Assembly: GCA_977017575.1 (NCBI GenBank)
Contig: CDRNVI010000038.1
Coordinates: 62,001-126,000 of the forward strand
From: Paramoeba atlantica
Taxonomy: Eukaryota > Protista > Discosea
Reading direction: 5' to 3'
Length of the DNA stretch: 64,000 nt
The notes beneath the pieces were generated by a model, which saw only the letters and a program-made list of their open reading frames with translations, had not been told where the DNA came from and did no database searches. Made by a program: the position numbers and the translations under genes. Shown piece after piece: positions 1,654-59,871 of this stretch (its first letter is position 1; each line of letters opens with the position of its first letter).

Positions 1654-1928
1654 AGAAATCCACGGCGAGGGCATCCGGACATTAACATAATCAAATCACG
1701 AATATGATAAAGTAAAGAAGTATCTAATTGAAAACATAGCTAATGTTGAACGTCTACTTCTCGTTATGCTATGGTTCCTCTTATGATGCTAGTAGATTTC
1801 TCCTATTGCTGAATAACGCGCTGTATAAATATTCAAAAAGGGGCCCTGGTACCACACAATTAAACTCAGAATGTTGAAGAAAAGGGAATACTTTGTGAAG
1901 GGGCTTAGCCCCCCACGCTCCGCAGCCG
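1654..1928 (-). repeat. YR1 repeat B2 (copy of B1 at 2163-2437)
   Basis: 275-bp direct repeat, offset 509. Confidence 0.95.
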
Positions 1929-1950
1929 TGGCTGGGGGTTGGTGGGTGGG

Positions 1951-2163
1951 CTTCGAAAACGTGTAAATAAACTTTGAAGAATAGCCTTCACACAACACAA
2001 AATCAACAAACAGAACAATATTTCTACCAGAAACAATACATACATATTATCAATAATTTCACTTGAAATGTAATCATATAAAAGCTTAAAATACAGCGCG
2101 TACAATGCCCGCCGGCCACGTAAGTAAATAGCCCTCGCCTAAATTTCTTACCGTAAACTTTTA
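1951..2163 (-). repeat. YR1 repeat A2 (copy of A1 at 6422-6569 plus 65 nt)
   Basis: Matches 6422-6569 except for the extra segment 2079-2143. Confidence 0.93.
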
Positions 2164-2626
2164 GAAATCCACGGCGAGGGCATCCGGACATTAACATAAT
2201 CAAATCACGAATATGATAAAGTAAAGAAGTATCTAATTGAAAACATAGCTAATGTTGAACGTCTACTTCTCGTTATGCTATGGTTCCTCTTATGATGCTA
2301 GTAGATTTCTCCTATTGCTGAATAACGCGCTGTATAAATATTCAAAAAGGGGCCCTGGTACCACACAATTAAACTCAGAATGTTGAAGAAAAGGGAATAC
2401 TTTGTGAAGGGGCTTAGCCCCCCACGCTCCGCAGCCGCCAACCCGCTCACTCGTAATGAATTCCTTGTCACTGGTAACTAAAATCACTACCTGTATGAAG
2501 AATGCTCGAAAATTGACCAGACTTTCGTAGCGTCTCCAAAACCTAAACGAAACTATTTTTTTTTTTTTTTTTTTTTTATTATTATTCTATATAAACTAAA
2601 TTTCATATAAATACGGTTGAATCGAA

Positions 2627-5299
2627 CTATCGTGCAAAATTCCTACTGACCGGGTCTGCCGGGTTGTCTTTCGTTGAGACGTAATCGGCCTTGATGCAGA
2701 CGCCCCGGTCCTTCGCCCATTGCAAAACCTTACCGAGTTGGTTTGATATTCCTCCTGATTTTGAAATTTTTCTGTTTAGCGCTGCTTGGCACGAAGTGTT
2801 ATCTACCCATAATTGCAAGCACGTGCCCCGGGTGAAATGTCTCTCCAACTTCTGGAGGGAAAGTCTAACGGCTGTCGCTTCTGCCCTATTTACTTCGTAT
2901 TGCCAAGAGGATTTCCATTGCCCCCCCACGATGATCACTTCGCCTGAATCGAGGTAGAGGATGCCTCCCCATCCTTTCGCTGAGGCGTCTGTATACAAAT
3001 TATGCTCCCGGGGAGCTATTTCAGGATGCGGGAGAGGTTCAACCGGTATGTTCCTAACAAGTTCATTTCGCCACTGCCGTAGCATATCTCGTATTTTGTT
3101 CGGTAGATCCACTACCTCTTCGGCCATCTCCGGCATGCGGTTTAACAAGTTTATGCGGCGTTGACATATTTTAAGGGCGAAATAGTATTTTGGAATAATA
3201 ATTCCCACTACTGAGGAGCAGTACAGGAGGCGCCCCACCGTCGCCTCGAGCTCCAGAAATGTAGTACGTGTAAATTGATCCTTCTCCAATTTTGCGACAA
3301 CTTTGGGTCCCAGGTTGACCTTGTGTACGCGATGGTCGTACCTAACACCGTTAAATACGTACTCCTTCATGGGAAGGAGTCCCGAGTCTTTAAAGCGCGA
3401 TCCTGTCTCTTGCTCGCGGTCATCAACCCATTTCTTGTACTGACAGGCCTGCTGATCTGTACCAGCAAACCGTACACCGTCCACGTAGATATCTAATGCG
3501 CCTTGTGAAAAGGTTGATTTACAGTATCCCTTCATACCGGCGATCGTAGCCGTGACTGTGTGCATCAATTCCGGGGCGCACCGATGCCCCATCGGCAAAA
3601 CGCGCATTTCATACAACACCCCCGTGTCTGAATAAAACCGAAATTTTTGACGACATTCCTGCGGAATCGAGATTTGATAAAAACCACATACTAGGTCCCT
3701 CTTCAGACCTGACTGCGCCTTAACTCTATGCAAATATTTAGATGGATGTAGTAGGGGTACCTGAGGAACGTATTCACTCAGCCGAGCGTTGTCAGAACGC
3801 GTCCAAGAAATAAATCGTCGACGTTGCTTGCCCTCATCGTCCGTTTCAATTACCGTGAAAGGAACCAGAAATTGCATTGAGGGACGTTTGTTTTCTTCCT
3901 TTTCGGATACCGCAGAAATAATACCATGCTTAAGTAAGAGCTCGTGATCTGTATGGCTCAAACTTCCTTTCATACGAGGAGATGTTTCAGGGCAAGATGG
4001 CATGCGTAATAATTCTTTCCAAACCTGTTCGAATCTTGAGGCGGTAGCTGTAGACATCCAGCTTCGAATTTTATTCATGTCAATAGTTGGAACTCCCGGC
4101 TTGACGTGTAACGGAATATGAAAGTCCTTCGGCTTTGCTAACTTAGAACTCCGGCGTGCACAAACTAATGTATGTCGTTTTAAGTAAGGGACTTCTTTAT
4201 AACACTCTTGCATTTCTACTGGAGAAAGGGTCCGGGCAATCGCGCTGACACTCGGTGCGTACCCAGTGCTCTTGCTGTCGTCAACTGCTGAGCATTGTAT
4301 CGGAGAAGACTCTCTAAGCTCAGATGCTTTGTGAGGATTTGCACCTCCGACAAGTTGAGGTGGCCGTTGGCGACTTCCTGAAGTAGATACGTTACAGCCC
4401 CCAGTTTTATAGAGTGGGTGCCATACCCGTTTCCTAGCACCCTTCTTATTTCGTGGTACATCTCTCGAACTGTGGTCCTGCACAGTTTTTGGTTTTTCGG
4501 AAGGCGTCTCAAGTAATTCGCTATTTGCTCTGTCCCCGGTCCTGATATTATGGCGTGCATGTATGGGCGGTATGGATTGAGACGTGTTGTCTTTGTGCTT
4601 CTTCCCCAATAAATCACGATTTCCTGCTCGGCAATGCTCAGAAATTGGTCGGCCTGTAGCTCGGCGACTTCCGTCCAGCGCGCTGCAGCCTTCCAGCAAA
4701 TCAAGATTGCGATGGCCTGTGATGGCGTGACGCTTTTGTAAAGTTTCGTTAGCAGATACTGTGTTAGAGGTTGCATCTGTCGATGAGGTTCGAGAGCTCC
4801 CTGCGCTTGCAGCGCCTTTGAGTATAATTTCAGAGGAATTGTGTTTTCGTTCATTAGAGTGTACATCGTATGCAACCCGCGGGCGTACGCTAATCTTGTC
4901 GACATTGCCAATTTTTGTGCATCGAGGAATAAAACGGCGTTGAGAGCGGAAGGCTGTATCATTTTTACTCGACAAAAGTCCTCCATTCGACTCCATATTG
5001 CCTCTCTCGACCTCCACGTAGTGTGAGCCCACATGGGACGAATTGCGTCTCGTAACACCGGAGCGTTCGCGTCCTCGGTCTGGATCCCTAACATTTTGTT
5101 TGTCAACATAACGCGTCTCACTCTTGCTGTCATCGGCAACTCGGCGCGGTTCGAACTTCTCTTCACACATATATGATCCGTCAAGCTTGCGTTTTGACTT
5201 GTCTGTGTCACGAGTAACGGCCTCCTGGCCCTCTTCTGATTTCCGTCGGTGCTCACATATCGAGCACCGTTCCATACAAACTTTATGCGCGAAGCGCAC
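2627..5299 (-). CDS. YR1 reverse transcriptase-RNase H (frame open upstream to about 5508)
   Basis: RDLVCGFYQ, LPMG, YVDG; RNase H TDAS..GWG, NRAE, VDNTS, NPAD..SR; listed start is GTG. Confidence 0.92.
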   Translation of the reverse strand: MRFAHKVCMERCSICEHRRKSEEGQEAVTRDTDKSKRKLDGSYMCEEKFEPRRVADDSKSETRYVDKQNVRDPDRGRERSGVTRRNSSHVGSHYVEVERGNMESNGGLLSSKNDTAFRSQRRFIPRCTKIGNVDKISVRPRVAYDVHSNERKHNSSEIILKGAASAGSSRTSSTDATSNTVSANETLQKRHAITGHRNLDLLEGCSALDGSRRATGRPISEHCRAGNRDLLGKKHKDNTSQSIPPIHARHNIRTGDRANSELLETPSEKPKTVQDHSSRDVPRNKKGARKRVWHPLYKTGGCNVSTSGSRQRPPQLVGGANPHKASELRESSPIQCSAVDDSKSTGYAPSVSAIARTLSPVEMQECYKEVPYLKRHTLVCARRSSKLAKPKDFHIPLHVKPGVPTIDMNKIRSWMSTATASRFEQVWKELLRMPSCPETSPRMKGSLSHTDHELLLKHGIISAVSEKEENKRPSMQFLVPFTVIETDDEGKQRRRFISWTRSDNARLSEYVPQVPLLHPSKYLHRVKAQSGLKRDLVCGFYQISIPQECRQKFRFYSDTGVLYEMRVLPMGHRCAPELMHTVTATIAGMKGYCKSTFSQGALDIYVDGVRFAGTDQQACQYKKWVDDREQETGSRFKDSGLLPMKEYVFNGVRYDHRVHKVNLGPKVVAKLEKDQFTRTTFLELEATVGRLLYCSSVVGIIIPKYYFALKICQRRINLLNRMPEMAEEVVDLPNKIRDMLRQWRNELVRNIPVEPLPHPEIAPREHNLYTDASAKGWGGILYLDSGEVIIVGGQWKSSWQYEVNRAEATAVRLSLQKLERHFTRGTCLQLWVDNTSCQAALNRKISKSGGISNQLGKVLQWAKDRGVCIKADYVSTKDNPADPVSRNFAR

Positions 5300-5373
5300 A
5301 AGTATCCTGGCAATTTCGCTCGCTGCCTCTTCAAGGCTCGAGCACGAGTAGGAATTTTTGGGGTGGGGGACAA
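4216..5373 (-). CDS. YR1 tyrosine recombinase
   Basis: AAARW (Arg I), STKT (Lys), HSIK, TKH..LLRY; in frame with gag; listed start is TTG. Confidence 0.88.
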   Translation of the reverse strand: MSPTPKIPTRARALKRQRAKLPGYLCASRIKFVWNGARYVSTDGNQKRARRPLLVTQTSQNASLTDHICVKRSSNRAELPMTARVRRVMLTNKMLGIQTEDANAPVLRDAIRPMWAHTTWRSREAIWSRMEDFCRVKMIQPSALNAVLFLDAQKLAMSTRLAYARGLHTMYTLMNENTIPLKLYSKALQAQGALEPHRQMQPLTQYLLTKLYKSVTPSQAIAILICWKAAARWTEVAELQADQFLSIAEQEIVIYWGRSTKTTRLNPYRPYMHAIISGPGTEQIANYLRRLPKNQKLCRTTVREMYHEIRRVLGNGYGTHSIKLGAVTYLLQEVANGHLNLSEVQILTKHLSLESLLRYNAQQLTTARALGTHRVSARLPGPFLQ

Positions 5374-5376
5374 TCC

Positions 5377-6420
5377 CTATTGGATCGTCCGTCTTTCGCC
5401 GCGACGGAACGTTGTCTGCGTCTGTGCAGCGCCACTCGCCACCCCCCGGGAGAAAACCGGTTGACGTAGCTGGGGACAGTTCGCCCGTATATGCCCAGGA
5501 GCACGACAGTTATAGCACAGTTGCTGCTGCCCTTGGCGACGATTTATACGTGTTTGCTTCAATTGCTCTTCGAGCATCGTTTTACCATAAACGTCTTCGG
5601 GGGTAGAGACCTGGTGGAGTCTTTGCTGTACGCGCTCTACCGGCGCACCCGCAGCAGCCCAGTAATGATTACGGAGTTCTTCAATCAAGCCAGTTGCAAT
5701 TTCATAAAAATATCCTGTTGACCAGTCTTGCAGCTGACGAGCTGCGTAGATCCACTTTGTCAGAAGTTGGAACAGTCGTTCTCGCGCAGGCGGGGGATTA
5801 AAACGAACTCCTAACTCCGGGGTGTCCCGTAACTCGCGGATCAACTCACGCGGTTTAAACTCATCTTCTGACTCCACCCAAGGGCCCCACGTCTTCGGAA
5901 TCACCGGGGAAAAATCCTTGGGGCCCGACACCGGTACGCGCGCGATGGAAGTTACAGGGTTTTCCACATGCTCCCCCCCGGGCATCCTGGCCTGGACCTT
6001 CGCAAGTTCGATGGAGAAATAGTGTATGTCAGGAAACGGAAACCCGTACTCAACATCAGGCTCGTCGTCCCACCGGGCCTTCAACTCACTCCCCACCGGG
6101 TCTTCGGGATTGAGAAAATAAACTCGTCCCGTGACAGTGTGGCGCGCGTTGTCGTCCTTGTGTCCCCAAATAGCGCGAATCCATACGCGGTGGACCCGGG
6201 TAAGTAAAAAACGGACTTTTTGCGAAAAATCGGACTTTGCGGAATCACTAAGCGGGGTCGCTATATCCTCTCCTTGCAATATACCCTCAACCTGGTCAGG
6301 GTTGAGAGTATGACGGGTCGCCCGAGGAGAACTGCGAGGAGACTCAGGAGGTACCGGATCAGGGCTGCGTGCACGTCCGAGTGATATCGCTCTAGAAACC
6401 GCGCTCACAATGCGTGACAT
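5377..6420 (-). CDS. YR1 gag-like protein with CCHC zinc knuckle
   Basis: ATG 1 nt after repeat A1; CYNCRAPGHIRANC. Confidence 0.88.
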   Translation of the reverse strand: MSRIVSAVSRAISLGRARSPDPVPPESPRSSPRATRHTLNPDQVEGILQGEDIATPLSDSAKSDFSQKVRFLLTRVHRVWIRAIWGHKDDNARHTVTGRVYFLNPEDPVGSELKARWDDEPDVEYGFPFPDIHYFSIELAKVQARMPGGEHVENPVTSIARVPVSGPKDFSPVIPKTWGPWVESEDEFKPRELIRELRDTPELGVRFNPPPARERLFQLLTKWIYAARQLQDWSTGYFYEIATGLIEELRNHYWAAAGAPVERVQQRLHQVSTPEDVYGKTMLEEQLKQTRINRRQGQQQLCYNCRAPGHIRANCPQLRQPVFSRGVASGAAQTQTTFRRGERRTIQ

Positions 6421-6568
6421 TCTTCGAAAACGTGTAAATAAACTTTGAAGAATAGCCTTCACACAACACAAAATCAACAAACAGAACAATATTTCTACCA
6501 GAAACAATACATACATATTATCAATAATTTCACTTGAAATGTAATCATATTTCTTACCGTAAACTTTT

Positions 6569-14904: not shown

Positions 14905-14930
14905 AATTGTAAGAGTAAGAAAACAACAAG

Positions 14931-14970
14931 CAACAAGGTACAGAAAAGAAAAGAAAACAAGGTACAGAAA
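14931..14970 (-). repeat. Two SL 3'-half relics (TTTCTGTACCTTGTT[G])
   Basis: Copies at 14931-14946 and 14956-14970 match the SL 3' end. Confidence 0.8.
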
Positions 14971-18778: not shown

Positions 18779-21676
18779 TTAGAGCGTTGTTGTTTCTGAA
18801 TTTAAAAGAGATACATGGCCATGCCTGTCGCTCTCGTTCCCATGGCGTGAGGGTTCATCTGCTATGTTTTTCTCGGAGCAAATCCAACGGACCTCCTTGA
18901 GATAACCAGGTAGGAAAAACACGTGGTATAACCGGCGTAGCCACTCCATAATTAGCGGGGGTCCTGCCTTCCATTTGGACAGCCATGCCACAACGTTCTT
19001 ATTATCTGATATCAGTGTACAAGCCTTGATTTTTCTTTCCTTTACCAGTTTTAAGCCCATCTCTGCTGCGAATAGCTCCTTATATGCAATAGGCTTATCT
19101 CTGAGCCAGGCCGCAAAATTTCCAGAGCGATACTGAAGACTTCCGCCCTGCAGCCATGCTAGTCCCCACCCCTTCTCGGAAGCATCACAATACAATTCAA
19201 AGGTACTGGTTTCTCCCCTCTCCAATTTTCTAGGGGTGTTTGCCTCCACTCTATCGATTAGCGTAATAAGGCTCGAGATGAATTTCTGGGACATCTGGCA
19301 TGGTAAATCCCATAAGACTGGCTTAGCTGCCAATCTGCGTGCTCTCCCCTTCAGCCAATACATCACAGTTGGAAATTCGCACTGAGTAATACCTAACACT
19401 CTAGTTGCCCAGAACAGGGTCCCCAACACTTTCCAGATTAGTCGGTGCGTCGGCAAGCGATGCTGTTGCGCTAGTAACTTGAATGCCTCGCGTAAGTGTT
19501 TTAATTTATCAATAAACTGAACCGGCAGTGAGAGTTTCTTTTCCTCTAGATTTACCTCAATGCCTAATACTGTGCCCTTACTGGTGGGCTTCGTGGTGAC
19601 CGCAATTTCGGCGCCAACCTGCTTCGCACGTTGCAAAGTTTGGCTCAGGTCATCCTCTACATCCTCCTGGCTGGTTCCAAAACGGTAACAATTGTCAATA
19701 AAAGTCAGTGGATGTGAATTACTAACCGGAAGGTTGTGGATCAAGCTTGTAGCCGCATGACCAATTTTTACCGAAGAATGCCATCCCATGGGCAATGTGG
19801 CCCAACCATATGTCCTTCCCTTAATGCGAACGGCCAAGTAGGGCAGAACATCTTCTGGAAGCCCAAACTGATGGTACCAATTTCTTCCATCCGTCTCCCC
19901 GAAGAATTTGTTTTCCAGGACCGCCTTTTCAATATCCTGCAAGCTCGCTAACGTTAAAGGTCCTGGGACTATAGATTGTATCTCGTTGAGAGGAATCGCA
20001 TTCAAGATCACACGCATGGTTTTCTTCTTCGGCTTGGGAATCAAAAATGCTGTCATCCATATTTTTGCGGTTCTCCGTGGGATTCTCTTTATTACCCCGG
20101 ACCTCACCATCTCCTCCACGAAAGGTTCCAGCCTCTTCGATTCACCGCGATAACGAGGATCGTAATCCTTCCTCAACAAGCCCTTAAACTTATTCGCGTC
20201 CTGCACGAAACCGAATATTTTCTTTTCTTCTCTCACATCGCTTCCAGTTTTCAGTAGAAGTAGTTCTTCTACATTTACCCGTTTTACATCAATCGGATCG
20301 ATTGGCCAGTTCTCTTTTCTGGGATGGTTTCTCTCTCCAAAAAACGTCCTGCGCATAAAACTCGCATAGGTATAGGATACAAAATCACAGAGTATCCTCC
20401 AAGGAGAGGTGCCGGCACCGACAGGTGCGGCGACGCCAGCTCGCCCGTGGTGCTGAGCCGCGTTTAATGAGGACTCTTCCTGAGCCCTATTCCCATACCC
20501 GCGTGGCATGAGTAATCGCCCGGGTTCCTTCCCGGCGCCCTGAATCATGTCGTCCGATTTACCTTGTTTGGTATCCTCCATGTGGGACTTTTTCTTCCCC
20601 ACAATATTTCTGCGTCTCAGGGGTCTTTTCTTCCCTTCTTTTGTCGCTTCCACGCCTATGCTCGTGCGATGGGAAACATTCTCACCTAAACTCTTAAATT
20701 TCTTGGGAAAATCATCCTTACCTGGGTAAATAGATAGACTGGTCTCATCACGTGCTTTACCAGTACCATCTCCCGGAAATGTTTCACTAGGTGATTTTCC
20801 AGAATCGTCTCGAACAGAAACTCTAATAAGGCCCGTTCCATAATTTCCTTGGCTCGGTATGTGTCGAGAACGCCTACCTTGAATCCCTTTCCTACTGGAG
20901 CTGTTTCCTTTTGAGGGCTGAGTCTTACGCGAAAGCGGAGGCCGGACTTTAAGGTTATGCGACCTCGGTACGGTTTCTCTTTCCGAGGCGAGCTTCGTGC
21001 ATTTTCTTTCGTAGAAAAGGGCCCGCGGGAGAGTTTGATCTTTCTCGAGGCGCCTTAATTCCATGTGCCCCCTTTTAAGCCCCCTTGGAGGTGGATTTTC
21101 CTGCGCGTATCTCCTTCGCACTCGAGCGCGCCGGCGGTTCTTCCCATCTCTCCTCGCGATGACGTTAGCCTCGTGAAACCTCATCATTTCACGCTGAGCC
21201 TGAAGATATTTCCCCTCGAGGGTATCAGCTCTAAGAGCCTCCTTCCAGTAGTCGCCAAATTTCCGACCCATTCTGTGTTTTATTCGCAAATAATGTATCA
21301 CCTCCATAGATGGTTCAATCGAACGCATCGTGATAAACAAACCCGCCCTCGCACGAGAACAGCAATCAGCTAGGTGAGCTGCAATGGTATCAAGCGCCAG
21401 ATCTAGACTTACGATATCTCTCGATACTGATGAGGGATCTGCAGAGTGCCCGAAACACTTTCGCACCTCGTGCCTAAGCTTTCCAATAAGATTCTTTCTA
21501 TAAAGATCACTGCAAAAATGTTCGAACTTCCAATTTTGCGGCTTGAGGAGGATATCGGTCGACAGGTCGTGACAACTAGGGTCATAACTTCCGAATAACT
21601 TTTTTGGTGAGCTCACCCCTGAAACTCGCAATCCAACTCCTGAGATTTCTCCTTCACCATTAGTGTAGCACGCCAT
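18779..21676 (-). CDS. YR3 gag-linker-RT-RNase H single ORF
   Basis: N-terminus aligns to YR4 gag (HFCSDLY..NLIG); TDG..WYHQF, LPMGW, FIDN, CDAS..GWG, KELFAAE, ISDN, NIAD.PSR. Confidence 0.88.
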   Translation of the reverse strand: MACYTNGEGEISGVGLRVSGVSSPKKLFGSYDPSCHDLSTDILLKPQNWKFEHFCSDLYRKNLIGKLRHEVRKCFGHSADPSSVSRDIVSLDLALDTIAAHLADCCSRARAGLFITMRSIEPSMEVIHYLRIKHRMGRKFGDYWKEALRADTLEGKYLQAQREMMRFHEANVIARRDGKNRRRARVRRRYAQENPPPRGLKRGHMELRRLEKDQTLPRALFYERKCTKLASERETVPRSHNLKVRPPLSRKTQPSKGNSSSRKGIQGRRSRHIPSQGNYGTGLIRVSVRDDSGKSPSETFPGDGTGKARDETSLSIYPGKDDFPKKFKSLGENVSHRTSIGVEATKEGKKRPLRRRNIVGKKKSHMEDTKQGKSDDMIQGAGKEPGRLLMPRGYGNRAQEESSLNAAQHHGRAGVAAPVGAGTSPWRILCDFVSYTYASFMRRTFFGERNHPRKENWPIDPIDVKRVNVEELLLLKTGSDVREEKKIFGFVQDANKFKGLLRKDYDPRYRGESKRLEPFVEEMVRSGVIKRIPRRTAKIWMTAFLIPKPKKKTMRVILNAIPLNEIQSIVPGPLTLASLQDIEKAVLENKFFGETDGRNWYHQFGLPEDVLPYLAVRIKGRTYGWATLPMGWHSSVKIGHAATSLIHNLPVSNSHPLTFIDNCYRFGTSQEDVEDDLSQTLQRAKQVGAEIAVTTKPTSKGTVLGIEVNLEEKKLSLPVQFIDKLKHLREAFKLLAQQHRLPTHRLIWKVLGTLFWATRVLGITQCEFPTVMYWLKGRARRLAAKPVLWDLPCQMSQKFISSLITLIDRVEANTPRKLERGETSTFELYCDASEKGWGLAWLQGGSLQYRSGNFAAWLRDKPIAYKELFAAEMGLKLVKERKIKACTLISDNKNVVAWLSKWKAGPPLIMEWLRRLYHVFFLPGYLKEVRWICSEKNIADEPSRHGNESDRHGHVSLLNSETTTL

Positions 21677-29760: not shown

Positions 29761-30269
29761 GGCGAAACATGGGTTGCTCTTGTTTTCTTCACCGTCTGTC
29801 GACATAGAATCTGATTGTGTCGCTTTTTCGTCTTCGGACTTTGAGGCGTTCGATTCATCATTTTCCGAAGTTTCTATATCGATATTTCCTCGTTCAATTC
29901 TGTTTCGCATCGTGTATCTCTTCAACTTGATGAGATTCGAATTCTTCGCTTCCACTTGATCATGAATTTCGTGGTCAGCCCAAATTGGAGAAATGTCTTT
30001 TCCTGTGCTTTGACTGATAACCCTAATTCGTGGTGTCTTCTTGGGTTTCGGTGCGGTCTCACTTTTATTGTAGCTCGGCTCGGTGATTCTGGTGTTCGGA
30101 GAAGCGCTACAGCGTCCTTCGCTACAATCATCCTTCCGGGTAGCTTGCAGAAAATTTCCCGATGTCGCCCCGATGTCGTCCGTGAAGTGTTTTCCAAATC
30201 TCGCTTGACGAGCGAACATGTTTAAGTAATCTCAATTAAAAAAAAACAACAAGCAACAAGGTACAGAAA
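29761..30269 (-). mobile_element. 5' end of a family-B-like element with SL relic (30254-30269); ORF from 30219
   Basis: KTPRIRV, WADH and MSTDG shared with the B1 N-terminus; possibly the 5' end of B2 with a deletion at the A2 site. Confidence 0.72.
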
Positions 30270-32061: not shown

Positions 32062-34799
32062 CTACGATAGTGCTTTGCTCATTTGAGAACACAGCACAGT
32101 GCCGTTTAACTCCTGGAGGTGCATTATGAAATCTTGCACAACGATATCGCGATCACGCCCGCTAGCATCGGCCAGAGATTTCAGGAGAGCCAGGCCACTT
32201 TTGTTCATTGCTCCTCCGGCGAGTATTGATACGCATGTAAATTTTTCATGAGGCATTAGATCCGAGTTAACATACGTGTCGACTTTGCGTTTTTCGGCTT
32301 CCTGCATTAGCTGATTGCTCCGTTTACCGAGATTCGTCTTGGATATTTCATTTATGATAGTGAGGTCATAGAATATCTCACCGGACGCCCAGTAAATTGC
32401 TAAGTCTGGTCCGCTGCGATGGAATGATGCGGTTCCACACTTTTTCTGATGTTCATGTTTGCGCTGTTCATTCACCGATTCATTACATTTCAGGCATCGA
32501 TAAGTGGTGAATTGTCTCGGTTCCCGCTCGCATGGGATTCCGGTCTGAAGACAGAGGTCGTAAATATGACGAACGAGAGCATGATGTCGCGTTGTCGCAT
32601 TTGCGCCTGTGCATTTAACGCAACCGAGCAAGTGTGCTAGAAAGTGTTTTGATTCGAGAATCATTTTGCATCCAGGGCATATGATTTTGTCCGGCATACT
32701 CTTGTGCGCAAGACCAAGTCGTGCCATCACCATTAGAGAGAATTGAGATGATGGAATATATCTCGTTTTTCCTTGCAACCAATCGTGATTACCCTTTTCA
32801 CTGCACGCCTTTACCAAAGGTGCCAACTCCTCGTTTTTCTTTGTCAGCTCTTGATACGTCTTCTGATTGAGCATAGCCTCCGTTGCGGGGCCATCATTTA
32901 CTGATTCGCTGTCCTGCGCTATACCTTCGTCGCACGTTAATCGAGCTGATTTTGGTTTACATTGCTCAAGAGAAACGCGTTTAGAAGAGTTGTACGCGGA
33001 CGTACGAGAGTCAGTAGATGATGGCAGGCCGAGCCCACCTTTCTTCATCGGCAACCGGCACCAAGCGATGTGTTTATCTGTCATTTTGCCAAGCCATGTG
33101 TTCAACACCGCTTCAACATCGCTGTCGAATTTTTTGCATAGTTTTTCCGATGCTATTGGTGTGTGTACCCGGGTGTGGTACCTATGTCTAATGTTTACGC
33201 TTTTCGATAGTAGAAGTAGTGATATGTTGTTTAAACCCATGCGCTTGAGACGTCGGAATATGGCTTCGTGCTTTTCAAGCTTCTGTGTCAGACATTCACT
33301 GACTACTTCGTCGTTGCCTATGTATGCACCTAGGGTCTTTGTCGCTGAATGCTTGATTTTCACTCCTTCTGCTTCAAGTTCTGCTGGGATTGGTATATCA
33401 TGCTTTCCGCCAAACCACACGCATTTGTGTTTGGCCATTTTGACTCGTTTCTCCGCTAGGAGGCCGTGTAGACGACTGAATGCATCAGCTAACGCTTGTT
33501 GGTCCTCAGATGCTAGGTTTATGTCGTCGATGAATGCGAAGATTTTTACTTGTGGAAATTCCATTGCCGGGGTTTCTATGATAGGCTGCATAAATGCGCA
33601 AAAGTACAAGGTAGATAACGGAGATCCTTGTCGTACTCCAGCTGAGCTATATATCGTCTCGTAATGCTCACCGTTTTTTCCGTAATATAAAAGCTCAGAG
33701 GCCTCCGAATATTCCGCGTGAAAGAATCTACGAAAAGGGCGCAATGTGCATAGGCCGAAAACGACTTTTGAGATGTCGCTACGCATAGGCGAGTTAAAGG
33801 CATTAGCGAGATCGATTGATAGAATGGCTTTGCCTTCTTGATAATGGCTATGAAGACGGTGCACTACTTTTTCGCATCCAGACTGTACAGATACTCCAAA
33901 TTGTAACGGGGCGAAGAGTTTTTCGAGTGTATGTTCGTGCCGTGCTACTAATACGATTCCCGCCAGTTTCAGGAAGACTTCGCCTACGCAGATTGGTCTG
34001 ACGCCTTTGTCTGCCTTTGGTAACGCTACCAAGCGTGCTCGTTTCAGACGATTCATTACTTGTTTTGACAGAAGTCCATTTATCAGATCCGCAAACATAT
34101 AACACATGGAGACGCAACAAATTTCGTCGTCCAAGAGGAGCCGAATTATTGTGTCAGTGGTTCCCGTAGGTCCTGGTGCCGATCCTTTGGCAAGACGCCG
34201 ACCTGCGTCCCTGAGTTCTTCGGTGGAAATGATGGCTATCTCAGGAGAGTCATCCGGGAGCTCAAAGTTTTCATGATTCTGCGGATGCAGGTCCCGTAGT
34301 TTGGCGCATACATCGTCGTCTGTTAGTTCCTGTGGTCGCACTTCCTGATCTAGCACTTTTGTTGCCTTAGAGACACACCCTTCTAGGGCCAGGCGGGTCG
34401 CTTTTTTTATGGTGCGTGCTTCTGTTTTGCTCAGTTCCTCCGCATCTCCAGCGTTTTCATCCGGGATCGGCCGTTTTCTTCTTCGTCGAATCGACGCGGT
34501 TCTCACTACTGTTAACGAGTGCTTCATTGCGGATAGGACCCTATTCCAAATGTCGTTTCTGTCATCATACGAGTTGGTGGCGTAATTCCGCATAATGTCC
34601 CGGTAAATTGCTACGACACATGGTGCGAAATCGGCATGAATCGCTCGGAGCTTCGGCATCGGCGCTAAATCCAAATCTTCTTCAGTGTGTTGTGTGACGG
34701 GTGGGCTGGCAACCGGTATTGAGTTCATATGTTTATCCATAGCGGACTGTTTTTTAAGCCACTGAATCTTATATATTCGAACATTCGCTTGCGGGGGAA
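32062..34799 (-). CDS. Family D RT-RLE (3' part)
   Basis: RPICVGE, GVRQGSPL, FIDD, GGLG, CPGC, RH, GPD; frame open up to the YR2 junction. Confidence 0.9.
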
Positions 34800-35593
34800 T
34801 TGCTCATCATCCGATGGTAGAAAGGTAACAAAAATAAACTCTCAAAACTTAACAAGCATACACTTTCTATAAAGCTCACACTACTGTTCGAAACCAAGAA
34901 TCCATATTCAAACACTATAATTAACTCATAAACAAGACGTCATGACTATAACCAAAGAAAACAAAGTAACCTTCCCATCACACAACTTCTCACCTCTCAG
35001 CTTGCGAACGGGTCACGCGGGGAGTGGTTTGGGGGTTGGTGGGTGGGGAAACTTTAATCGCGAATAAATCAAACAGACGCTAAAATGAATCAAAATCTCA
35101 AATTCAATGTCAAATATATATCATCACTATATCATCTTTCGCCACTATATCATATTATATTTCGGGGACAATAATTCGGGGGGAGATTTGTTTCGGGGGG
35201 AAAACCCCCGGTAGGGGGCATCCTGAATAATGACGCCCCATCTCCTTTGATCAATTCTTATCGTAAACTTTAAGAATTGCTCATCATCCGATGGTAGAAA
35301 GGTAACAAAAATAAACTCTCAAAACTTAACAAGCATACACTTTCTATAAAGCTCACACTACTGTTCGAAACCAAGAATCCATATTCAAACACTATAATTA
35401 ACTCATAAACAAGACGTCATGACTATAACCAAAGAAAACAAAGTAACCTTCCCATCACACAACTTCTCACCTCTCAGCTTGCGAACGGGTCACGCGGGGA
35501 CCACCCATTCGCACGTACTCCAATCACCCAATCGCTTGTATGGCAGATAAATCCGGTGCCTACTCCAGACGTACCTCCCATTACAAAACATTT

Positions 35594-35650
35594 TTATATA
35601 TATATATATATATATACATTTTTATATATATATATATATTTATATATAGA
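35594..35650. repeat. (AT)n microsatellite in the YR2 3' region
   Basis: Interrupted TA runs. Confidence 0.85.
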
Positions 35651-35723
35651 GATATAGATGTAATATGAACTATATGCTAGAACTACTTTTTTTTTTTTAA
35701 TCTTATGTTGTCCAAAGTCTCTG

Positions 35724-38486
35724 CTACAATCTACTATACGGATCCGCAGGGTTATCCTCAGAACGAATATACTGCGCTTGGACTGCGATACCTCTCTTCT
35801 GCAAATAATTCAACAACCTACGAAGCTCTTCCGTGATCCCATCCGAGCTTGATACTTTCCGATTGACTGCAGCAACGCAAGATGTATTATCCACAAACAG
35901 GTCTACACACGTTCCTTTCTCAAAATGTTGCCCGTACTTTTCAAATGCCAATCGCACTGCGCGGGCCTCCGCTCTGTTTACTTCATACTCAAATTCCTGA
36001 GGCCACTGTGCACCTGTGCACAACATCTGACCGTAGTCAAGATACAAAACTGCGCCCCACCACGTGGACGATGCGTCAGTACACAAAACATGCTGATGCG
36101 GAACTGTGTCCGGATGACACGGTGGATCAACAGGAGATCGATGTAATAGAGCATCACGCCATTCCGTAAGAGTAACCCGCACAGGGGTCGGTAAAGGTAC
36201 TTGCTGGTCAAGAAGAGACGGTTCTCTGTTCAGCCGATTAATTCTACGGCGTACAATTTTTAATTCGAGATGAAACTGTGGTAAATGCATACCCATCACC
36301 GCTGACGCAAAAATCATTCGACCCAACGCTGACTCCAAAGAACCATACGTTGCTGTAGCAAAATCGTCCTGCGTTAGACGGCGCGTTAATTTTGGACCTA
36401 ACGATACCTTTCCTAGGCCATGGTGATACGTGATACCATTAAACGTGTAGGTCTGCGATGGAGGGGCTCCGGCATCCTTAAAACGCGCATTGACTTCCCT
36501 AGCCCGGTTGTCTACGAACCTGACGTATTGTTCAGCGATCACTTCGCTCCCCGCAAAACGGATACCATCTATATAAACATCGGCATTATCTGAAGAAAAC
36601 GCGGCATCCGCGGTACAAAATTGCTTATCCCCTTCCAGCGTCGCTGTTAGTACATGCATTATTTCGGGTGCACACCGATGCCCCATAGGCATTACATTCA
36701 TTTCAAACAAATCGCCTTTCGCATCCTTAAATCGAAACTTCTCTCTACATGTTAAAGGAATAACCACTTGCCAAAATCCACACGCTAAGTCGCGCTTCAC
36801 CGCCGTTTGTTCTTTTACACGATGCAAATAGTACGCTGCATGCTTTAACTCAACATGAGGATGATACGTTTCCTTAATTCGCTCGTTGTCACCTTGCGTC
36901 CAAGCAATGAAACGCCGTCGCTCCGACCCATCTTCGGCGGGCTCAACTACCGTAAAAGGAATTACCCAATCCCGAGACGGGCGCTTTGCAGCCTCGGCGG
37001 TAGTAACTCGTGTAATGAAGCCTTGGGCTTCCAACAATTCTACGTCACTAGCTGGTAAAAAAGATTTAAATTTCGGAGCGGGAGCTCGCTCATCGGGAAC
37101 TTCTAACATCATTTTCCACGTCTGATCAAAACGCATACGTTGCTCTTCGTTCATCATTCCTCGTAGTTTACGAATATCCATCTGTGGAATCCCACTTTTG
37201 ATATGCAAAGGAAGACCAAAATCTTTCGTGGTCGCCACTTTAGACGTGCGACGCGTGCGTGTTATAGTATGTCTTACCTTTTCTGCTGGAACATCATCAA
37301 TGTACTTGCTAAAAACAAGTTCCTCTTCTACCATATGTGCAGCTTTCTGGTCGCTTTCTGGGTCCCGAGGGCTAACGCCGTTGTCACTGGGTCGGAATTG
37401 TACCGGAGTAACGATTCGATTGACTGGTGCTTTGCGAGGTGCTGTACCTCGTCGAGACGGACGTTGCCGTCGGCAACCTGCTTTAACAACTGCGTAATGG
37501 CCCCACGCTTTGCCGAATGAGTCCCGTATCCGCTGCCGAGAATTTTGCGTATCTTCGAATCCGCCTCCGTCACCGTTGCGCGTGACATTGGTTGGAGGTG
37601 TCCGAGTTTGTGTATGTATAACGCCAGGCGATTTGTTCCCTCGCCCTCTACCACCGTATACATTGAGGGCCGATACGGGTTCAGACGGGACGTCTTTGTC
37701 TTCCGTCCCCACCAAATTACAATTCGCGTTGCGGATACCTCGTAAAAACGATCCCTGGTGAGCGTTGCTGTCTCCGTCCAACGGCTTGCCGCTTACCAAC
37801 ACAGCAGCAATGTATGTTTTTCGCTTGACGGTAGGTGGATCCATAACATGTTCAATTGCGTGGTGGTGAGGGGGGACATCTGTCGGAACGGCTCTGCCGC
37901 TCCCTCGGCCATGAGGGATTTGATGTAAAAACGCAGGGGATTGGTTTGCATGCCGGCCATGCTTAATATCGCCGCTACGCTCCGCGCGTAAGTCAACTTT
38001 CCCTGAATTTTGATCGGCATTTCGGCGATGAAAGTCACGGCGTGCAACGGAGTTATTGGAATTCCCTTCCAATTGCAGAATGTTGTTAGACGCTCCCACA
38101 GCCTGGCTCTGGCCTGCCACGTGGAGACGCTCCACATCTCCGACATTGCGTCCAATGCAGTGCGTACTTCTGGTGTGAGCACATTCACTCCCATTAGCAA
38201 CTTCATGAGGCTTAGTCGCGCTGGAGCGGTCTGTTGAAGACTCAAAGTACCGTTGTATAATTCTCCTGAGGTGATCAATCTCCCTTTTAAGTTCACCGAG
38301 TTGGGCGTATACTCCATGCTGCATATTTTCCTTCTCTTCATCACTTGCGTAGAAATTACTGTAATTCGACGTTTGAATTTTATGACAGTACTGGCCGTTA
38401 GTGTGGGGTCGTTTCAAAGACTCTTGCTGCTTGAAGCAGGGCCAGCCACCCGCGCCCGAAAACCCTGCTGGAAACGTTTTGGGCAA
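35724..38486 (-). CDS. YR2 RT-RNase H
   Basis: RDLACGFWQ, MPMG, YIDG, TDAS, NRAE, VDNTS, NPAD..SR. Confidence 0.9.
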   Translation of the reverse strand: MPKTFPAGFSGAGGWPCFKQQESLKRPHTNGQYCHKIQTSNYSNFYASDEEKENMQHGVYAQLGELKREIDHLRRIIQRYFESSTDRSSATKPHEVANGSECAHTRSTHCIGRNVGDVERLHVAGQSQAVGASNNILQLEGNSNNSVARRDFHRRNADQNSGKVDLRAERSGDIKHGRHANQSPAFLHQIPHGRGSGRAVPTDVPPHHHAIEHVMDPPTVKRKTYIAAVLVSGKPLDGDSNAHQGSFLRGIRNANCNLVGTEDKDVPSEPVSALNVYGGRGRGNKSPGVIHTQTRTPPTNVTRNGDGGGFEDTQNSRQRIRDSFGKAWGHYAVVKAGCRRQRPSRRGTAPRKAPVNRIVTPVQFRPSDNGVSPRDPESDQKAAHMVEEELVFSKYIDDVPAEKVRHTITRTRRTSKVATTKDFGLPLHIKSGIPQMDIRKLRGMMNEEQRMRFDQTWKMMLEVPDERAPAPKFKSFLPASDVELLEAQGFITRVTTAEAAKRPSRDWVIPFTVVEPAEDGSERRRFIAWTQGDNERIKETYHPHVELKHAAYYLHRVKEQTAVKRDLACGFWQVVIPLTCREKFRFKDAKGDLFEMNVMPMGHRCAPEIMHVLTATLEGDKQFCTADAAFSSDNADVYIDGIRFAGSEVIAEQYVRFVDNRAREVNARFKDAGAPPSQTYTFNGITYHHGLGKVSLGPKLTRRLTQDDFATATYGSLESALGRMIFASAVMGMHLPQFHLELKIVRRRINRLNREPSLLDQQVPLPTPVRVTLTEWRDALLHRSPVDPPCHPDTVPHQHVLCTDASSTWWGAVLYLDYGQMLCTGAQWPQEFEYEVNRAEARAVRLAFEKYGQHFEKGTCVDLFVDNTSCVAAVNRKVSSSDGITEELRRLLNYLQKRGIAVQAQYIRSEDNPADPYSRL
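37328..38413 (-). pseudogene. YR2 tyrosine recombinase with one TAA (37793-37795)
   Basis: LLCW*AASRW versus ICWKAAARW in YR1; KTKT, HSAK, AKH..LLRY. Confidence 0.87.
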
Positions 38487-39540
38487 TTACGCCACAAGTG
38501 CTCTGGGGATTGACACCCGAAACATAATAACTTGCGTTGAGAGAAATTAGACGGACGCGGTTGGGCTTGACCATAACGTGCGGTAGAATAAACGTGAGCA
38601 GATGAATGAGCGACTGCGCGGGAGTGTTGCTTTTGACGTTCCACCAATTGTTCATTTACGTGGTGGTAAAACTTATCATTGGGCCGCACTTCTTTTTTCA
38701 GCTTCTGGTGAACCAATTCGACATCTACCTGGCGAGCCTGCCAATACGCGTCGCGAAGAGTCTGAATGATTGCACGTCCCATTTCCAGATAGGGTCCTTC
38801 GTTCCAATTAGGGATGATCCGGGCAAAAAGAATCCACTTGAAGAAAACATTATTAAAAAATCGCTCCTGGCGTATGACGAATCCTCGATCCTGGTAATAA
38901 TGATTTACACGGAGTCCATATTCCGGCGCGTCGCGGAGCTCACGCATCAAGTCTCTCGTTCGAAAGCCTCCATCATCGAAATAATTAATCCACGGACCAA
39001 AAGTAATAGGCTCATACGGATCTAATGCGTTAGGATCAACTCCTTCCGGGATTTGTGCATTGGGATCGCTACTCAGTTGCGACGTTGGACATATTGGCCG
39101 TGCCCCCAGTTCTTCACGTAGCTCTTGGGTCGGAGGTTCATTTACATCCTGCGCTTCCTGAGCACTTAGGGGTCTTCGCCGAGACAACTTTCGTTGTTCA
39201 ACGAGATTCACTTCAAAATAATCTAAGTCGGGGTGTGGAAACTCGTACTCCTTCGAAGGCTTATCTTCCCATACCCCCATAACTTTAAGCCCTCCTTACG
39301 TAACTTACCATATAACGTTTGTCGCTTGCCGGAAACATCATCCTTACGACGAAAGGTAGCCATCACATGGGCCGACGGATTATCTCCCTGCATACCTGTC
39401 AATGTTTCGCGGGCCATCGTGGCAACTAAACTAAGCTCTTGCGGATTAAGCGGCTCGGTAGGCTCGAGCTGCTGCCCCGCCGGGGAAGAACTACGGGAAG
39501 ATCGTAAGGTACGGGTATCCGGACCGTCGATGAGCGGCAT
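38414..39540 (-). pseudogene. YR2 gag with a 1-nt frameshift in a G run (about 39275)
   Basis: CFGCQSPEHLWRNC knuckle; EYEFPHPD aligns with YR1 EYGFPFPD; ATG close to repeat A1. Confidence 0.82.
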
Positions 39541-39769
39541 AAAGAAACTTTAATCGCGAATAAATCAAACAGACGCTAAAATGAATCAAAATCTCAAATT
39601 CAATGTCAAATATATATCATCACTATATCATCTTTCGCCACTATATCATATTATATTTAGGGGACAATAATTCGGGGGGAGATTTGTTTCGGGGGGAAAA
39701 CCCCCGGTAGGGGGCATCCTGAATAATGACGTCCCATCTCCTTTGATCAATTCTTATCGTAAACTTTAA

Positions 39770-46917: not shown

Positions 46918-46952
46918 GAAGGGTGAGAGAATAAGAAAAGGAAAAAAGACAA

Positions 46953-49600: not shown

Positions 49601-49639
49601 ACGTTGAGTGAGTCCACTGAGTGAGTCCCACGGGGGTGG

Positions 49640-55132: not shown

Positions 55133-58100
55133 CTATATTGCGTTAGTAGTTTTCCGAAAACGAAAGCGTTCAACGCCACGTCTGTCGCCACCTTGAGAAG
55201 GGATGTCATCCAGCCTAATGCACCTGGAGGGCTTATCTTCTAGGTTTCTATCCGAGGGACACCACATAACTTCTGTAATGTACCCCTTCACTTTGAACCA
55301 AAAAAGTTTCTTAAGCCAACTCATCACTTTTGGTGGGCCTGCCCGCCAACGCGTTAGCCATGAAACCACATTCTTGTTGTCGGAAATTAAAGTGCTATTC
55401 CGTAAGTTTTTTTGTCTAACTAAATTCATCCCCTGCTCCGCGGCATACAATTCTTTATATGCAATCGATGAATCTTTCAACCAAAAGGGAAACCTTCCAG
55501 CCTTATATTTTAGGTCGCCGTGCTCTGTCCAAGCCAAACCCCACCCTTGATCAGAGGCATCCACAAAAATTTCAAAAGAAGCGACGCTTTTTTCGTTTAC
55601 TTTTCGAGGGCGATTCTCCTCTACTGTGTCAATAAGCTCTACAAGATCTGCAATGAACGCCTTTGACATAAAACAGGGTTTGTCCCATAAAGATTGATCG
55701 AATGCTAGCCTACGGGATCGACCCCGGACCCACAACATGACGCCTAAGAACTGACATTGCTGGATACCTAGAATTCGTGTGGCCCAGAAAAGAGTACCCA
55801 GTACCTTCCAAATTAGGCGATGAGAGGGAAAGAAACGACGTCGCTGCAAACATTGAAATGCCTCGCGTAGTGCAGCTAACTTTTGAAGAAAAAGTACGGG
55901 GAGTGAAAGAGTTTTCTGCTGGAGATCCACGTGTACTCCCAATATTGTGCCGCTCACCGTTGGTTGTGTAGTTACCAATATTTCGGCACCAGCACGGTCG
56001 GCTCGCTGCTGAATGTTTTGCAAATCCCCCGTGAGAGTTTCCGTATCATTCGCAAAACTATAGCCGTTATCTATAAATGTCAAAATTCGCTGTTTTTCTA
56101 TTCCCTGGTACAAGACATTTGTCGCGGCATGGCCTATTTTCACCGACGCCTGCCAACCCATCGGGAGCGTAGCCCATCCGTATGTTCGCCCTTTGACACG
56201 GACTGCGAAGTAAGGGAGCAGCTTTGGCGGCAAGACGAATTGATGGTACCAACTCTTGCCATCCGTTTCGCAAAAGAAATTGTATTTGGCTACCATGGTC
56301 TCTATATCTTTCAAAGATGCAAGGTCTAGAGGGCCTGGTACCATCTCTTGCATAGAGTTTAGCGGAATCGCGTTTAAGATGACACGCATAGATTGCTTCT
56401 TCACTTTGGGTATCAAAAATGATGTCATCCATACTCTTACCGCTCGTCGTGGAATACGCTTCAAAATACCTGCTTGGAGCATCTCGCGGAGCACGCGTCC
56501 TAATTTTTTTGATTCGCCCCGATAACGCAGATCACGGAACTTTTTCAACAATTGCATAAACTTTTCTGGATTAATAATATAATCAAACAGTTCTGCCTCT
56601 TCACTCATATCTTCTTCCTTAGCCATTCTGACTAACTCGGTCAGATTGATTCTGGCGGACGAGACGGCGTCCAGCGGCCAATCTCGTTCACAGGGACGGG
56701 TTCTCTCTCCACGCTGGATTCGTCGATTGTCAGGGAAGTGTATATTGACGTAGGTGGGGTAGGCGACGAATTCATACAGTATTTCCCACGGAGAGGTGCT
56801 CGCACCGACAGGTGCGGCGACGCAGGCTCGCCCATTACGGTGCTGAGCCTCGTCTTCTTTAAGTGACGCGCGTTTAGCGCTGTCTGAACTTCGTACTGGT
56901 CCTCTAGCGATGTTCCCTCCCCCACTGCGTTCACGTAGTCCGCAAGTTCTTTCTCCATAGCTCGCTTCCTTTTTCTGGTTTGTAACGGGGCGGTTAAGTC
57001 GGCTTTCAGCGGGTCTACTAGGTATCTCGGGACCCGGGACTTCGGAGGACTTGTGTCCGTGATAGAACCCTTCGGAAGCATGTGAACTACTCCTCGAGAG
57101 AAATCTTTTCGACACCATGTGGGGTTTTCGCCTTCGCCCATTTCGCGTAGCACCTCGCGCTCTGTGGTCAGGTACGGATAAGGTAGCGTCTGTTGAGGGA
57201 TATGCCGATGAGGAGTGTAATAAGGGGTGGGAAGGTGGTGAGAGTCGAATTTCTGAAGTCGAGAAACGGGAGTTCGTGGATGATCTTCGTCCATCGGGAT
57301 GGGGGGTAGCATTGCTCCTGCCTCGCGTGGTTGTTGTTGTTGTTGGAATGCCTCGAGTGGTGTGGGGAGGGATGGCGGGATTGATTCGCGAGGATCGGGA
57401 GTTTCTGAATGATCTTCCATCATCACGGGAGTTAACAAAGGTTCTTCCTCGCGTGACGTGAGGAGGGACGGCGGGATCGTGTTTGTTGGCTCGGGAAAAC
57501 GTGATTCGAGAGGTGTCTGCAGCCGATGACTCACGCCTGTTGGTACGGGGAGTATTGGTGGGTCTGTACGAGGGGTTCGGCTGGGGCAGAGCGGAGTGGA
57601 AATTACTCGTATGTTGTTTACACAGCTTGAAAAGCTTAGGCGTCTGGGGAGGCTCGCCCTCTGCAGGATTCCCCACCGATCTTTTGGTGTTGAGCAATTC
57701 GATTGAGTGACCACTCCCATCGTTTGATCGACGGATAGAATTGATCTGGGTCCGTTCGTCGGTCTTACCTCTTTCCTCAATGACTCGGGAGTACTTTCCT
57801 GCTGTATTTGAATGCTTCCCGTCTCCACGATAGTTTCGAGCGGCAGGAGTGTCTCTTCGGATGGTGTGAATCCTCTTTTCTCTTCCGACAGGGTAGTTCT
57901 TGGCTCGTCGAGATCTGGCTTTTCTTCTCTCCGGGATGTCGTGGCTTGATTGTGACAAATTTCCCGGGTCTGCGTCGTAGGATGCTCGAAAGGCACGGCT
58001 ACGTATTGTCCTAGTTTTCGAGACACCTCTAATCCCGCTATCGCTCTTGGGTCTAGAAACGAGCCGAGATACGCCCGCAGGGAAGCTTCGGAAACGTGCC

Positions 58101-59323: not shown

Positions 59324-59871
59324 TAGCGGCCGTATTCTCGACCAAACTTATGTTTGTAACGAAGATAGTGCAAATTCTCAAACGCGGGCTCCACTGAAAC
59401 CATCGAAAACGGACGTCCTGCTCGCGCGTGCAACCCGCAATCTTGGAGGTGTTTCGAGATCGTGTCGAGACTTTCTCTCAAACTTATGGCATCCCCCGCA
59501 ACCGCACCAGGATCTTTTGAGTTTCCAAATTGTTTGCGAATTTCATGCTCCAATCGTCCAATTAAATTGTCCCGGTATAGATCACTGCAGAAATGTCGGT
59601 ATTCCCATTCTTTTGGTCGGAAAAGCTTTTCGTGGGGGAGGTCATGGGCCGCAGGATCATACCCGCCCGGCGCCGACACACTCTTTGCTGCCATTCCCAG
59701 AGCTTCCCGAATTTGCGCGGATTGCCGCTCCACCGTAGCTTCCAACATACCGATGCGCTCTTGATCAATCTTCGTTGACGCCATGAGTTCCTCCATACGC
59801 TGCATCATTCTGGTATTATCCCCCAACTGCTGGATCACATCTCTCGGAGAGGGTGGCTGACCTTCGGCCAT
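59086..59871 (-). CDS. YR4 gag-like protein with RGG-rich tail
   Basis: Position, homology to the YR3 N-terminus; no CCHC knuckle. Confidence 0.75.
   Translation of the reverse strand: MAEGQPPSPRDVIQQLGDNTRMMQRMEELMASTKIDQERIGMLEATVERQSAQIREALGMAAKSVSAPGGYDPAAHDLPHEKLFRPKEWEYRHFCSDLYRDNLIGRLEHEIRKQFGNSKDPGAVAGDAISLRESLDTISKHLQDCGLHARAGRPFSMVSVEPAFENLHYLRYKHKFGREYGRYWKETAQSAPMDDQYTQAHEATMSYYQNMSIAQGAAMNAKNGGGRGYGERFRGPFRGVGRARGGRGMASRNGHNIAGSQ

Follow-up and report, generated by a model that had tools for sequence, protein, structure and literature searches.

A single in-frame stop between gag and the tyrosine recombinase of VIPER-like retroelements as a candidate three-way translational exit

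Retroelements of the window

The window (the whole 64,000-nt stretch of DNA analysed) is a retroelement array, with almost every element on the minus strand, and comprises CRE/SLACS-like non-LTR elements with Pfam RVT_1 matches and four elements of the tyrosine recombinase (YR) type, YR1 to YR4. The order gag, YR and RT/RNase H, with YR and RT overlapping, holds in YR1, YR2 and YR4; split direct repeats of the form A1...B1-A2-B2 are present in YR1, YR2 and YR3. The features of these elements are as follows.

1654..6568, minus strand: YR1 element, inside a CRE/SLACS-like non-LTR element; empty-site joint 1653-6569 in three runs
6422..6550 (A1), 1951-2079 (A2), 2163-2437 (B1) and 1654-1928 (B2), minus strand: YR1 repeats, 100% identical by self-BLAST
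5380..6420, minus strand: YR1 gag, putative start the ATG at 6420; CCHC knuckle at 5476-5517 (Pfam zf-CCHC, E = 1.6e-5)
5452..5458, minus strand: candidate YR1 slippery heptamer G GTT TTC, imperfect, 72 nt ahead of the stop
5360..5445, minus strand: predicted YR1 stem-loop joining a G-run past the slip site to a C-run beyond the stop, with the stop at the hairpin tip (fold z = -2.55; 1 of 200 shuffles equally good)
5377..5379, minus strand: YR1 gag stop TAG (CAA-TAG-GGA-TTG), the same in run contigs
4216..5376, minus strand: YR1 tyrosine recombinase ORF in the gag frame, first ATG at 5133
2627..5509, minus strand: YR1 RT-RNase H ORF in the -1 frame, overlapping the whole of YR
34797..39769, minus strand: YR2 element with A1...B1-A2-B2 repeats; empty-site joint in three runs
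38417..39295, minus strand: YR2 gag, 3' part; CCHC at 38483-38524
38459..38465, minus strand: YR2 slippery heptamer G GGT TTT, 42 nt ahead of the stop
38414..38416, minus strand: YR2 gag stop TGA (CTT-TGA-AAC), spanned by run contigs
37328..38413, minus strand: YR2 recombinase ORF in the gag frame, first ATG at 38341 (Pfam Phage_integrase, E = 0.002)
35724..38486, minus strand: YR2 RT-RNase H ORF in the -1 frame
59089..59871, minus strand: YR4 gag-like ORF, lacking a CCHC and homologous to the YR3 N-terminus
59203..59209, minus strand: YR4 slippery heptamer A AAA AAC, 114 nt ahead of the stop
59086..59088, minus strand: YR4 gag stop TGA (CAG-TGA-CTC), read from the window sequence alone
56641..59085, minus strand: YR4 recombinase ORF of 814 codons in the gag frame, first ATG at 59019
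55133..59347, minus strand: YR4 RT-RNase H ORF in the -1 frame (Pfam RVT_1, E = 1.2e-6)
18779..21676, minus strand: YR3, a relative of YR4 lacking the recombinase; its gag and RT form a single in-frame fusion, the junction peptide lying at 21113-21142

Insertions are nested at 1654-6568 and 34797-39769, where runs show empty sites for YR1 and YR2. YR1 interrupts a CRE/SLACS-like ORF that is present in whole copies at 26196-29873 and 42820-46986. The modelled YR1 recombinase (pLDDT 95.6) matched a Cre-like fold (E = 1.7e-7), and the R-K-HxxR/K-H-Y set (R152, K181, H240, H270 and Y279) is conserved across 86 sequences. The motifs MWA..TW, ASRW and HSIKRGA of YR1 and YR2 match T. cruzi VIPER by eye, and both elements fit the structural definition of VIPER-like elements (DIRS order), a placement made by structure. 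YR4 was left unplaced. Its identity as a tyrosine recombinase was assigned from alignment and from Atlas features, which matched Phage_integrase clusters with a score of 0.98; it was not matched by the VIPER-type YR profile and, judged by sequence, is of another, more distant YR lineage than YR1 and YR2. The initial annotation had counted three full YR elements; this stands for YR1 and YR2, whose repeats are complete, whereas YR4 is not demonstrably full because it has only a 30-nt A pair and no B repeat.

YR3 has intact split repeats and its RT is 58% identical to that of YR4; it may be a non-autonomous element that takes its recombinase in trans. A peptide following the TAA at 21055-21057 had been read as the vestige of a YR in this element. 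We rejected this candidate, as it failed a shuffle test: the 121-codon stretch scored 28 against the YR of YR4 by comparison with a shuffle mean of 30.8, with 365 of 500 shuffles as high, and only its first 15 residues, chosen post hoc, stood out (1/2000). The TAA itself closes no gag ORF.

No Pfam match to a methyltransferase domain was found in the elements, the 18 inverted repeats listed include none that flanks an element as terminal repeats would, and Rfam returned no matches. Homologues come from Papus and Diplonema. A motif resembling a spliced leader (SL), TTTCTGTACCTTGTT, occurs in five copies beside retroelement ends (272-291 and 14930-14969 on the minus strand; 9872 and 30268 on the plus strand); the copies may represent spliced-leader sequence that was captured, or else targets of insertion. 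The window also holds tandem arrays at 48190-49684, 50390-50656, 52129-52800 and 54236-54560 (units of ~59-67 nt, 20 nt, 112 nt and 108 nt) and a pair of long inverted repeats, 31557-31918 and 63613-64000, which are 96-98% identical, are built of G/C-run units and lie 32 kb apart.

The stop between gag and the recombinase

As initially annotated, gag, one stop and YR share a frame in YR1, YR2 and YR4, with the stops at 5377-5379, 38414-38416 and 59086-59088 on the minus strand. These stops close ORFs of 417, 293 and 265 codons respectively, counted from stop to stop. The RT-RNase H ORF opens in the -1 frame 129 (YR1), 69 (YR2) and 258 nt (YR4) before the gag stop and overlaps all of YR. The first ATG lies at codon 82, 25 and 23 respectively, bearing out the earlier observation that it is at least 20 codons past the stop. 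A single leaky stop followed by an open frame was found in YR1 (TAG-G) and YR4 (TGA-C); the stop in YR2 is TGA-A. The further claim that the frame continues open into the YR domain was upheld for YR1 and YR4 but not for YR2, where a second in-frame TAA (37793-37795) falls inside the domain; as all four of four runs read Lys (AAA) there, this TAA is a window error or a private variant.

The YR1 TAG is spanned by contigs of the public runs X1 and X2 with no listed change, and the YR2 TGA by contigs of runs X1, X2 and X3 with no change among the differences listed, which rules out assembly error as the source of these two stops. Elsewhere the window differs from the run contigs by many single bases at 1400-7000 and 34700-39900, often with A in the window, and some of these touch conserved YR residues (4403, Leu versus Arg; 37795, stop versus Lys). 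In the window the 5' part of YR2 gag is out of frame by a single base; runs X1 and X2 have an additional base at 39273. Other stops and frameshifts of this window may be assembly errors. Reassignment of UGA to Trp in the host was rejected, as TGA ends the YR ORF in 16 of 29 elements and also ends other ORFs of the window.

A profile search returned 878 YR relatives, and a motif-based scan gave 44 loci, of which 36 were assessable; the remaining eight (L009, L020, L030, L031, L037, L040, L041 and L044) begin inside YR and were dropped. In 30 of the 36, gag, a single stop and YR share one frame with RT at -1, including five in which the contig ends within 77 codons upstream (L001, L002, L019, L024 and L038). 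The layout pattern across relatives exceeds chance; random gag/YR phase or several intervening stops among relatives, which the initial annotation had named as the outcome that would tell against its proposal, were not what we found. The six misfits matter because the set was defined by the gag-stop-YR layout itself, but they amount to 6/36: L032 and L039 are swapped, L035 probably carries an indel, and an in-frame gag is missing from L006, L023 and L025. These six were excluded from the stop and spacer statistics. The 30 loci and the three window elements fall into 21 clusters at 50% identity, and the p-values below overstate independence because clusters share ancestry.

L032 (62-70) and L039 (850-858) form a sister pair in which gag ends in GGG ACC TGA, with RT in frame behind the single TGA and YR at +1; they have the peptide GPE(L/M)L in common, and the same phases occur in two B. 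saltans table rows. Because ACC-UGA resembles the antizyme-type shifty stop, +1 shifting and readthrough may share one stop here. L043 and L044 are VIPER-type eukaryotic retroelements lying within two bacterial MAG assemblies, a placement that is probably binning contamination. Scans of viral contigs and a first metagenome scan found nothing. A search for longer Gag-YR fusions gave a sole protein, P0006, which was discarded as a frameshifted YR-RT chimera; gag-YR-RT gene models of Diplonema were not counted as natural fusions, as the gene predictor may have skipped the stop. The CCHC knuckle was absent from all 151 collected proteins.

Among the 21 clusters the gag stop is TGA in 19, TAG-G in two and TAA in none. 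The YR's own stop, taken as a control with the same overlap geometry, is TGA in nine, TAG in eight and TAA in three of 20 clusters (Fisher p = 0.0025). A neutral set of 378 frame-0 stops in the RT-only region contained 49% TGA, 7.9% TGA-C and 1.3% TGA-CT, versus 19/21, 11/21 and 9/21 at the gag stop (binomial p = 9e-5, 1e-7 and 3e-12 respectively). TGA-G and TGA-T were seen at none of the 19 gag TGA stops versus 71 of 187 neutral ones. TGA-A counts against readthrough: it occurs in 8/21 clusters, is not enriched (86/187 neutral TGA), and is also the context in YR2 and in all five published VIPER copies. TAG-G is found in YR1 and L011/L012. Readthrough contexts are classed, in the text available of PMC3159437, as Type II (UGA-CUA/CGG) and Type III (UAG-G), and the gag-stop contexts resemble both types.

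The spacer between the gag stop and the first ATG adds up to 862 codons over the 21 clusters and contains no stop. At the control rate 33.8 would be expected, and 12.7 by synonymous shuffling of the RT frame, where the minimum was four and none of 2000 shuffles was stop-free; the third frame of the spacer contains 54. Leaky-type stops and a stop-free spacer among relatives support the earlier proposal, and readthrough of the gag stop to give Gag-YR is, on this comparative sequence evidence, probable. Amino-acid selection on the spacer is weak, with differences at codon positions 1, 2 and 3 of 157, 154 and 191 in one six-member family, and this counts against readthrough.

We considered whether a free YR is produced instead, either by reinitiation after termination of gag or through its own ATG, reached by leaky or internal initiation. 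Of 32 VIPER-type elements, 31 have an in-frame ATG ahead of the conserved W, and in 17 of 20 clusters one lies at least 30 codons ahead of it (11-15 expected by rate, p = 0.002-0.23). In the YR1 model the whole fold is encoded from its own ATG; TGA-ATG occurs in T. cruzi VIPER (by eye) and L013, with the ATG at codon 2 in L018 and L043; and the ORF2 start laps the ORF1 stop in two L. pyrrhocoris rows of the excerpted published table. These observations favour a free YR and weigh against readthrough. Initiation of this kind does not, however, predict the frame lock, the bias to UGA and UAG-G or the 862 stop-free codons. The first ATG scatters from codon 1 to 137, and out-of-frame ATGs come first in 8 of 33 elements, with no depletion of out-of-frame ATGs seen in the spacer. 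L028 has no ATG before the domain, its first being 33 codons inside the conserved part. In L004, L016 and L021 the first ATG is at most 15 codons from the conserved W, and the YR1 model predicts two helices in the 34 residues before this W. We therefore consider a free YR unlikely as the general explanation, while some lineages may make free YR from the YR ATG alongside readthrough.

Alternatively, YR could have its own trans-spliced or internally promoted mRNA, leaving the in-frame layout as a historical leftover. The host is probably euglenozoan, given the Papus and Diplonema homologues and the SL-like motif, and a minor promoter at the gag-pol junction of Tca2 (excerpts of PMC2194720) offers a precedent. 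The YR ATG, unlike the gag ATG, has no T-rich tract before it, with a median of 7 T per 20 nt (n = 21) versus 12 before gag ATGs (n = 11; p = 9e-5), in a comparison that draws on metagenomic loci. Further, a leftover would have gained stops over end branches with a median length of 0.63 changes per site (YR tree without YR4). A separate YR mRNA is thus highly improbable.

Readthrough of the gag stop, which we prefer, needs to be told from bypass of the stop without misreading, which would still yield Gag-YR: a -1 slip undone by a +1 slip, removal of a small intron, A-to-I editing that creates a Trp codon, or selenocysteine insertion. Every variant fits the open spacer; editing would also account for the absence of TAA because TAA needs two edits; and the Diplonema gene models join gag to YR, probably via predicted introns. 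Double slipping and splicing, on the other hand, predict no stop-codon bias, and selenocysteine cannot use the TAG of YR1 and L011. We rate bypass as very improbable. Stops that are misread receive near-cognate residues: W, C or R for UGA and Q, Y or K for UAG.

The -1 frameshift and predicted RNA structure

Strict X XXY YYZ heptamers within 120 nt before the gag stop were found in the -1-competent phase in 13 of 21 clusters and in neither of the other phases (0 and 0). Before the YR's own stop, as a control, they numbered 0, 0 and 2 of 20 by phase, with 0/20 in the -1 phase. The heptamer is strict in YR2 and YR4 and imperfect in YR1, and the YR4 site lies just beyond the 120-nt span. The junction peptide of YR3, KNRRRARVRR, equals the predicted -1 product at the A AAA AAC of YR4 in 10 of 10 residues. 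Phase-specific heptamers and this fusion junction support the frameshift to RT that the initial annotation had assumed, and a -1 frameshift yielding Gag-RT is very likely on these grounds.

The predicted folds often join the G-run that follows the slip site to a C-run immediately 3' of the stop, so that the stop comes to lie close to the tip of a hairpin. The segment from -15 to +35 gave z < -2 in 9 of 21 clusters versus 1 of 20 for each control window at the YR stop, although the offsets differ (-15 versus -30). The predicted z is -2.60 for YR4; structure downstream of the slip site is predicted in YR1 (z = -2.55) and not in YR2 (z = +0.88). No structure distinct from this fold was found 3' of the stop, where windows that begin at the stop codon gave z < -2 in 2, 1 and 1 of 21 (mean z about +0.4, offsets 0 to +10). 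VIPER-type gag stops differ in this from alphavirus and murine leukaemia virus (MuLV) signals, which have structure 3' of the stop. A GC palindrome had been described after the YR4 stop; it is present (59070-59083), but the best fold puts the stop at a hairpin tip paired with upstream sequence. If the stop lies within the frameshift stem-loop as predicted, the outputs of frameshifting and readthrough may be coupled.

These folds raise the alternative that the stop context is set by the frameshift structure or by coding in the RT frame and is uninformative on readthrough; the stop and the next bases are indeed often paired in the predicted fold. The pairing state of the stop differs from element to element, however, the control stops have the same RT-frame geometry, and a spacer that is stop-free up to 137 codons away is left unexplained. 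We regard this alternative as extremely improbable.

Comparison with known systems and the proposed three-way exit

VIPER of T. cruzi and other kinetoplastids, as described in excerpts of PMC6681497 and PMC5146736, resembles the window elements in the order gag-YR-RT/RH, the YR/RT overlap, the A1...B1-A2-B2 repeats and the CCHC box, and by eye in a heptamer A AAA AAC or G GGA AAC followed by a single TGA. It differs in that these papers give three separate ORFs, and in T. cruzi an ATG stands directly behind the stop, which is not so in the window elements. The coordinates given there (ORF1 169-1509, YR 1510-2517 and RT 1386-4214) already imply the gag/YR/RT phase. Five published copies (one from B. 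saltans, three from C. fasciculata and one from T. cruzi; PMC6681497) were read by eye, a procedure prone to error. The phase check suggested by the initial annotation came out in its favour in these copies: in each, a slippery heptamer and one TGA-A precede a frame that stays open into YR, and the first ATG falls near codon 120, 47, 37, 8 and 1. The coordinates of the published table put three rows for B. saltans and two for L. pyrrhocoris out of phase. For C. fasciculata 21_76128 a mismatch would follow from the table, whereas CCHC, TGA and YR are in frame in the sequence itself. Phase counts from published tables were discarded as a statistic, since one-base offsets affect many of the rows.

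TATE (excerpts of PMC6681497) is alike in gene order, repeats, a slippery A AAA AAC where gag ends and a YR that is apparently a Gag fusion. The arrangement differs here: the two copies read by eye end gag in TAA, and a second frame-0 stop follows within about 10 codons, yet YR is still joined to gag, the -1 frame leading to YR and not RT. In TATE of C. mellificae and T. theileri (PMC6681497, additional file 11, by eye), A AAA AAC at the gag end opens the YR ORF in -1; this is likely to be an unreported frameshift. Three TATE rows of the table list gag and YR as one ORF (PMC6681497). Because two copies join YR via -1 and three rows list one ORF, a Gag-YR fusion looks like a normal product in the group.

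Further parallels were drawn from excerpts of PMC3159437 and PMC2194720. Gammaretroviral gag-pol of MuLV (Type III, UAG-G; both sources) likewise has a single in-frame stop after gag, and UAG-G is the context in YR1 and L011/L012; unlike MuLV, the downstream product here is a recombinase, no compact 3' structure was found, and a -1 exit lies at the same place. As in the Type II signals of alphaviruses and tobraviruses (UGA-CUA/CGG; PMC3159437), C comes directly after UGA in 11 of 21 clusters, usually as CU, but the third base is free here (CUC commonest; CUA and CGG once each among the 21 representatives) and no stem-loop signal extends 3' of the stop. One in-frame stop also parts ORFs of the retrotransposons Tca2 (gag-UGA-pol) and SIRE1 (pol-stop-env; PMC2194720), but both are of the LTR type and have a single recoding event at that site. 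The Tca2 junction alone gave no readthrough in an S. cerevisiae reporter (PMC2194720), which counts against readthrough here; Tca2 also has the minor junction promoter mentioned above.

The best explanation for these data is probably a three-way exit at the end of gag, with ribosomes either terminating, slipping -1 into RT or passing the stop by readthrough into YR. On the full-length RNA, a ribosome terminating at the gag stop would release Gag; one slipping -1 ahead of the stop would make the predicted Gag-RT/RNase H; and one misreading the leaky stop would make the predicted Gag-recombinase. Fusion to Gag would serve to package both enzymes in fixed minor ratios. If so, the long YR/RT overlap follows, because both enzymes must start at the gag end. 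We lean, with some reservation, towards the broader reading that in widespread eukaryotic retrotransposons one RNA element at the gag end acts as a three-way translational switch, with frameshift and readthrough 3-115 nt apart, two enzymes in overlapping frames, and lineages rewired by exit; the latter would include the YR of TATE, reached via -1, and L032/L039, with RT behind the stop and YR at +1.

In the texts available to the literature search we found no explanation for the expression of the overlapping recombinase and RT genes of YR retrotransposons, and no proposal of readthrough or programmed frameshifting for them, although an earlier remark is possible in Lorenzi 2006 or the Poulter reviews. 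The term-searched texts, each in part, were PMC6681497, PMC5146736, PMC7192593, PMC12278014, PMC8547959 (for terms other than 'readthrough'), PMC5814959, PMC3783388 and PMC3266345; within the portions of the main texts of PMC6681497 and PMC5146736 that were available, 'readthrough' occurs 0 times and 'frameshift' refers to mutations only. Both recoding modes and the family were known before; what appears to be new is the combination of the two modes at a single stop to supply two overlapping enzymes.

The three-way exit is a specific, testable answer with exact sites, and it explains a YR/RT overlap of more than 1 kb. If true, it would be a rare case of two recoding modes at one stop and would add a large natural collection of protist readthrough and frameshift signals. 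That collection would take in VIPER, the most abundant retroelement family of T. cruzi (1764 copies with SIRE, according to excerpts of PMC12278014), and VIPER annotations with three free ORFs would then be likely to mis-state the actual proteins.
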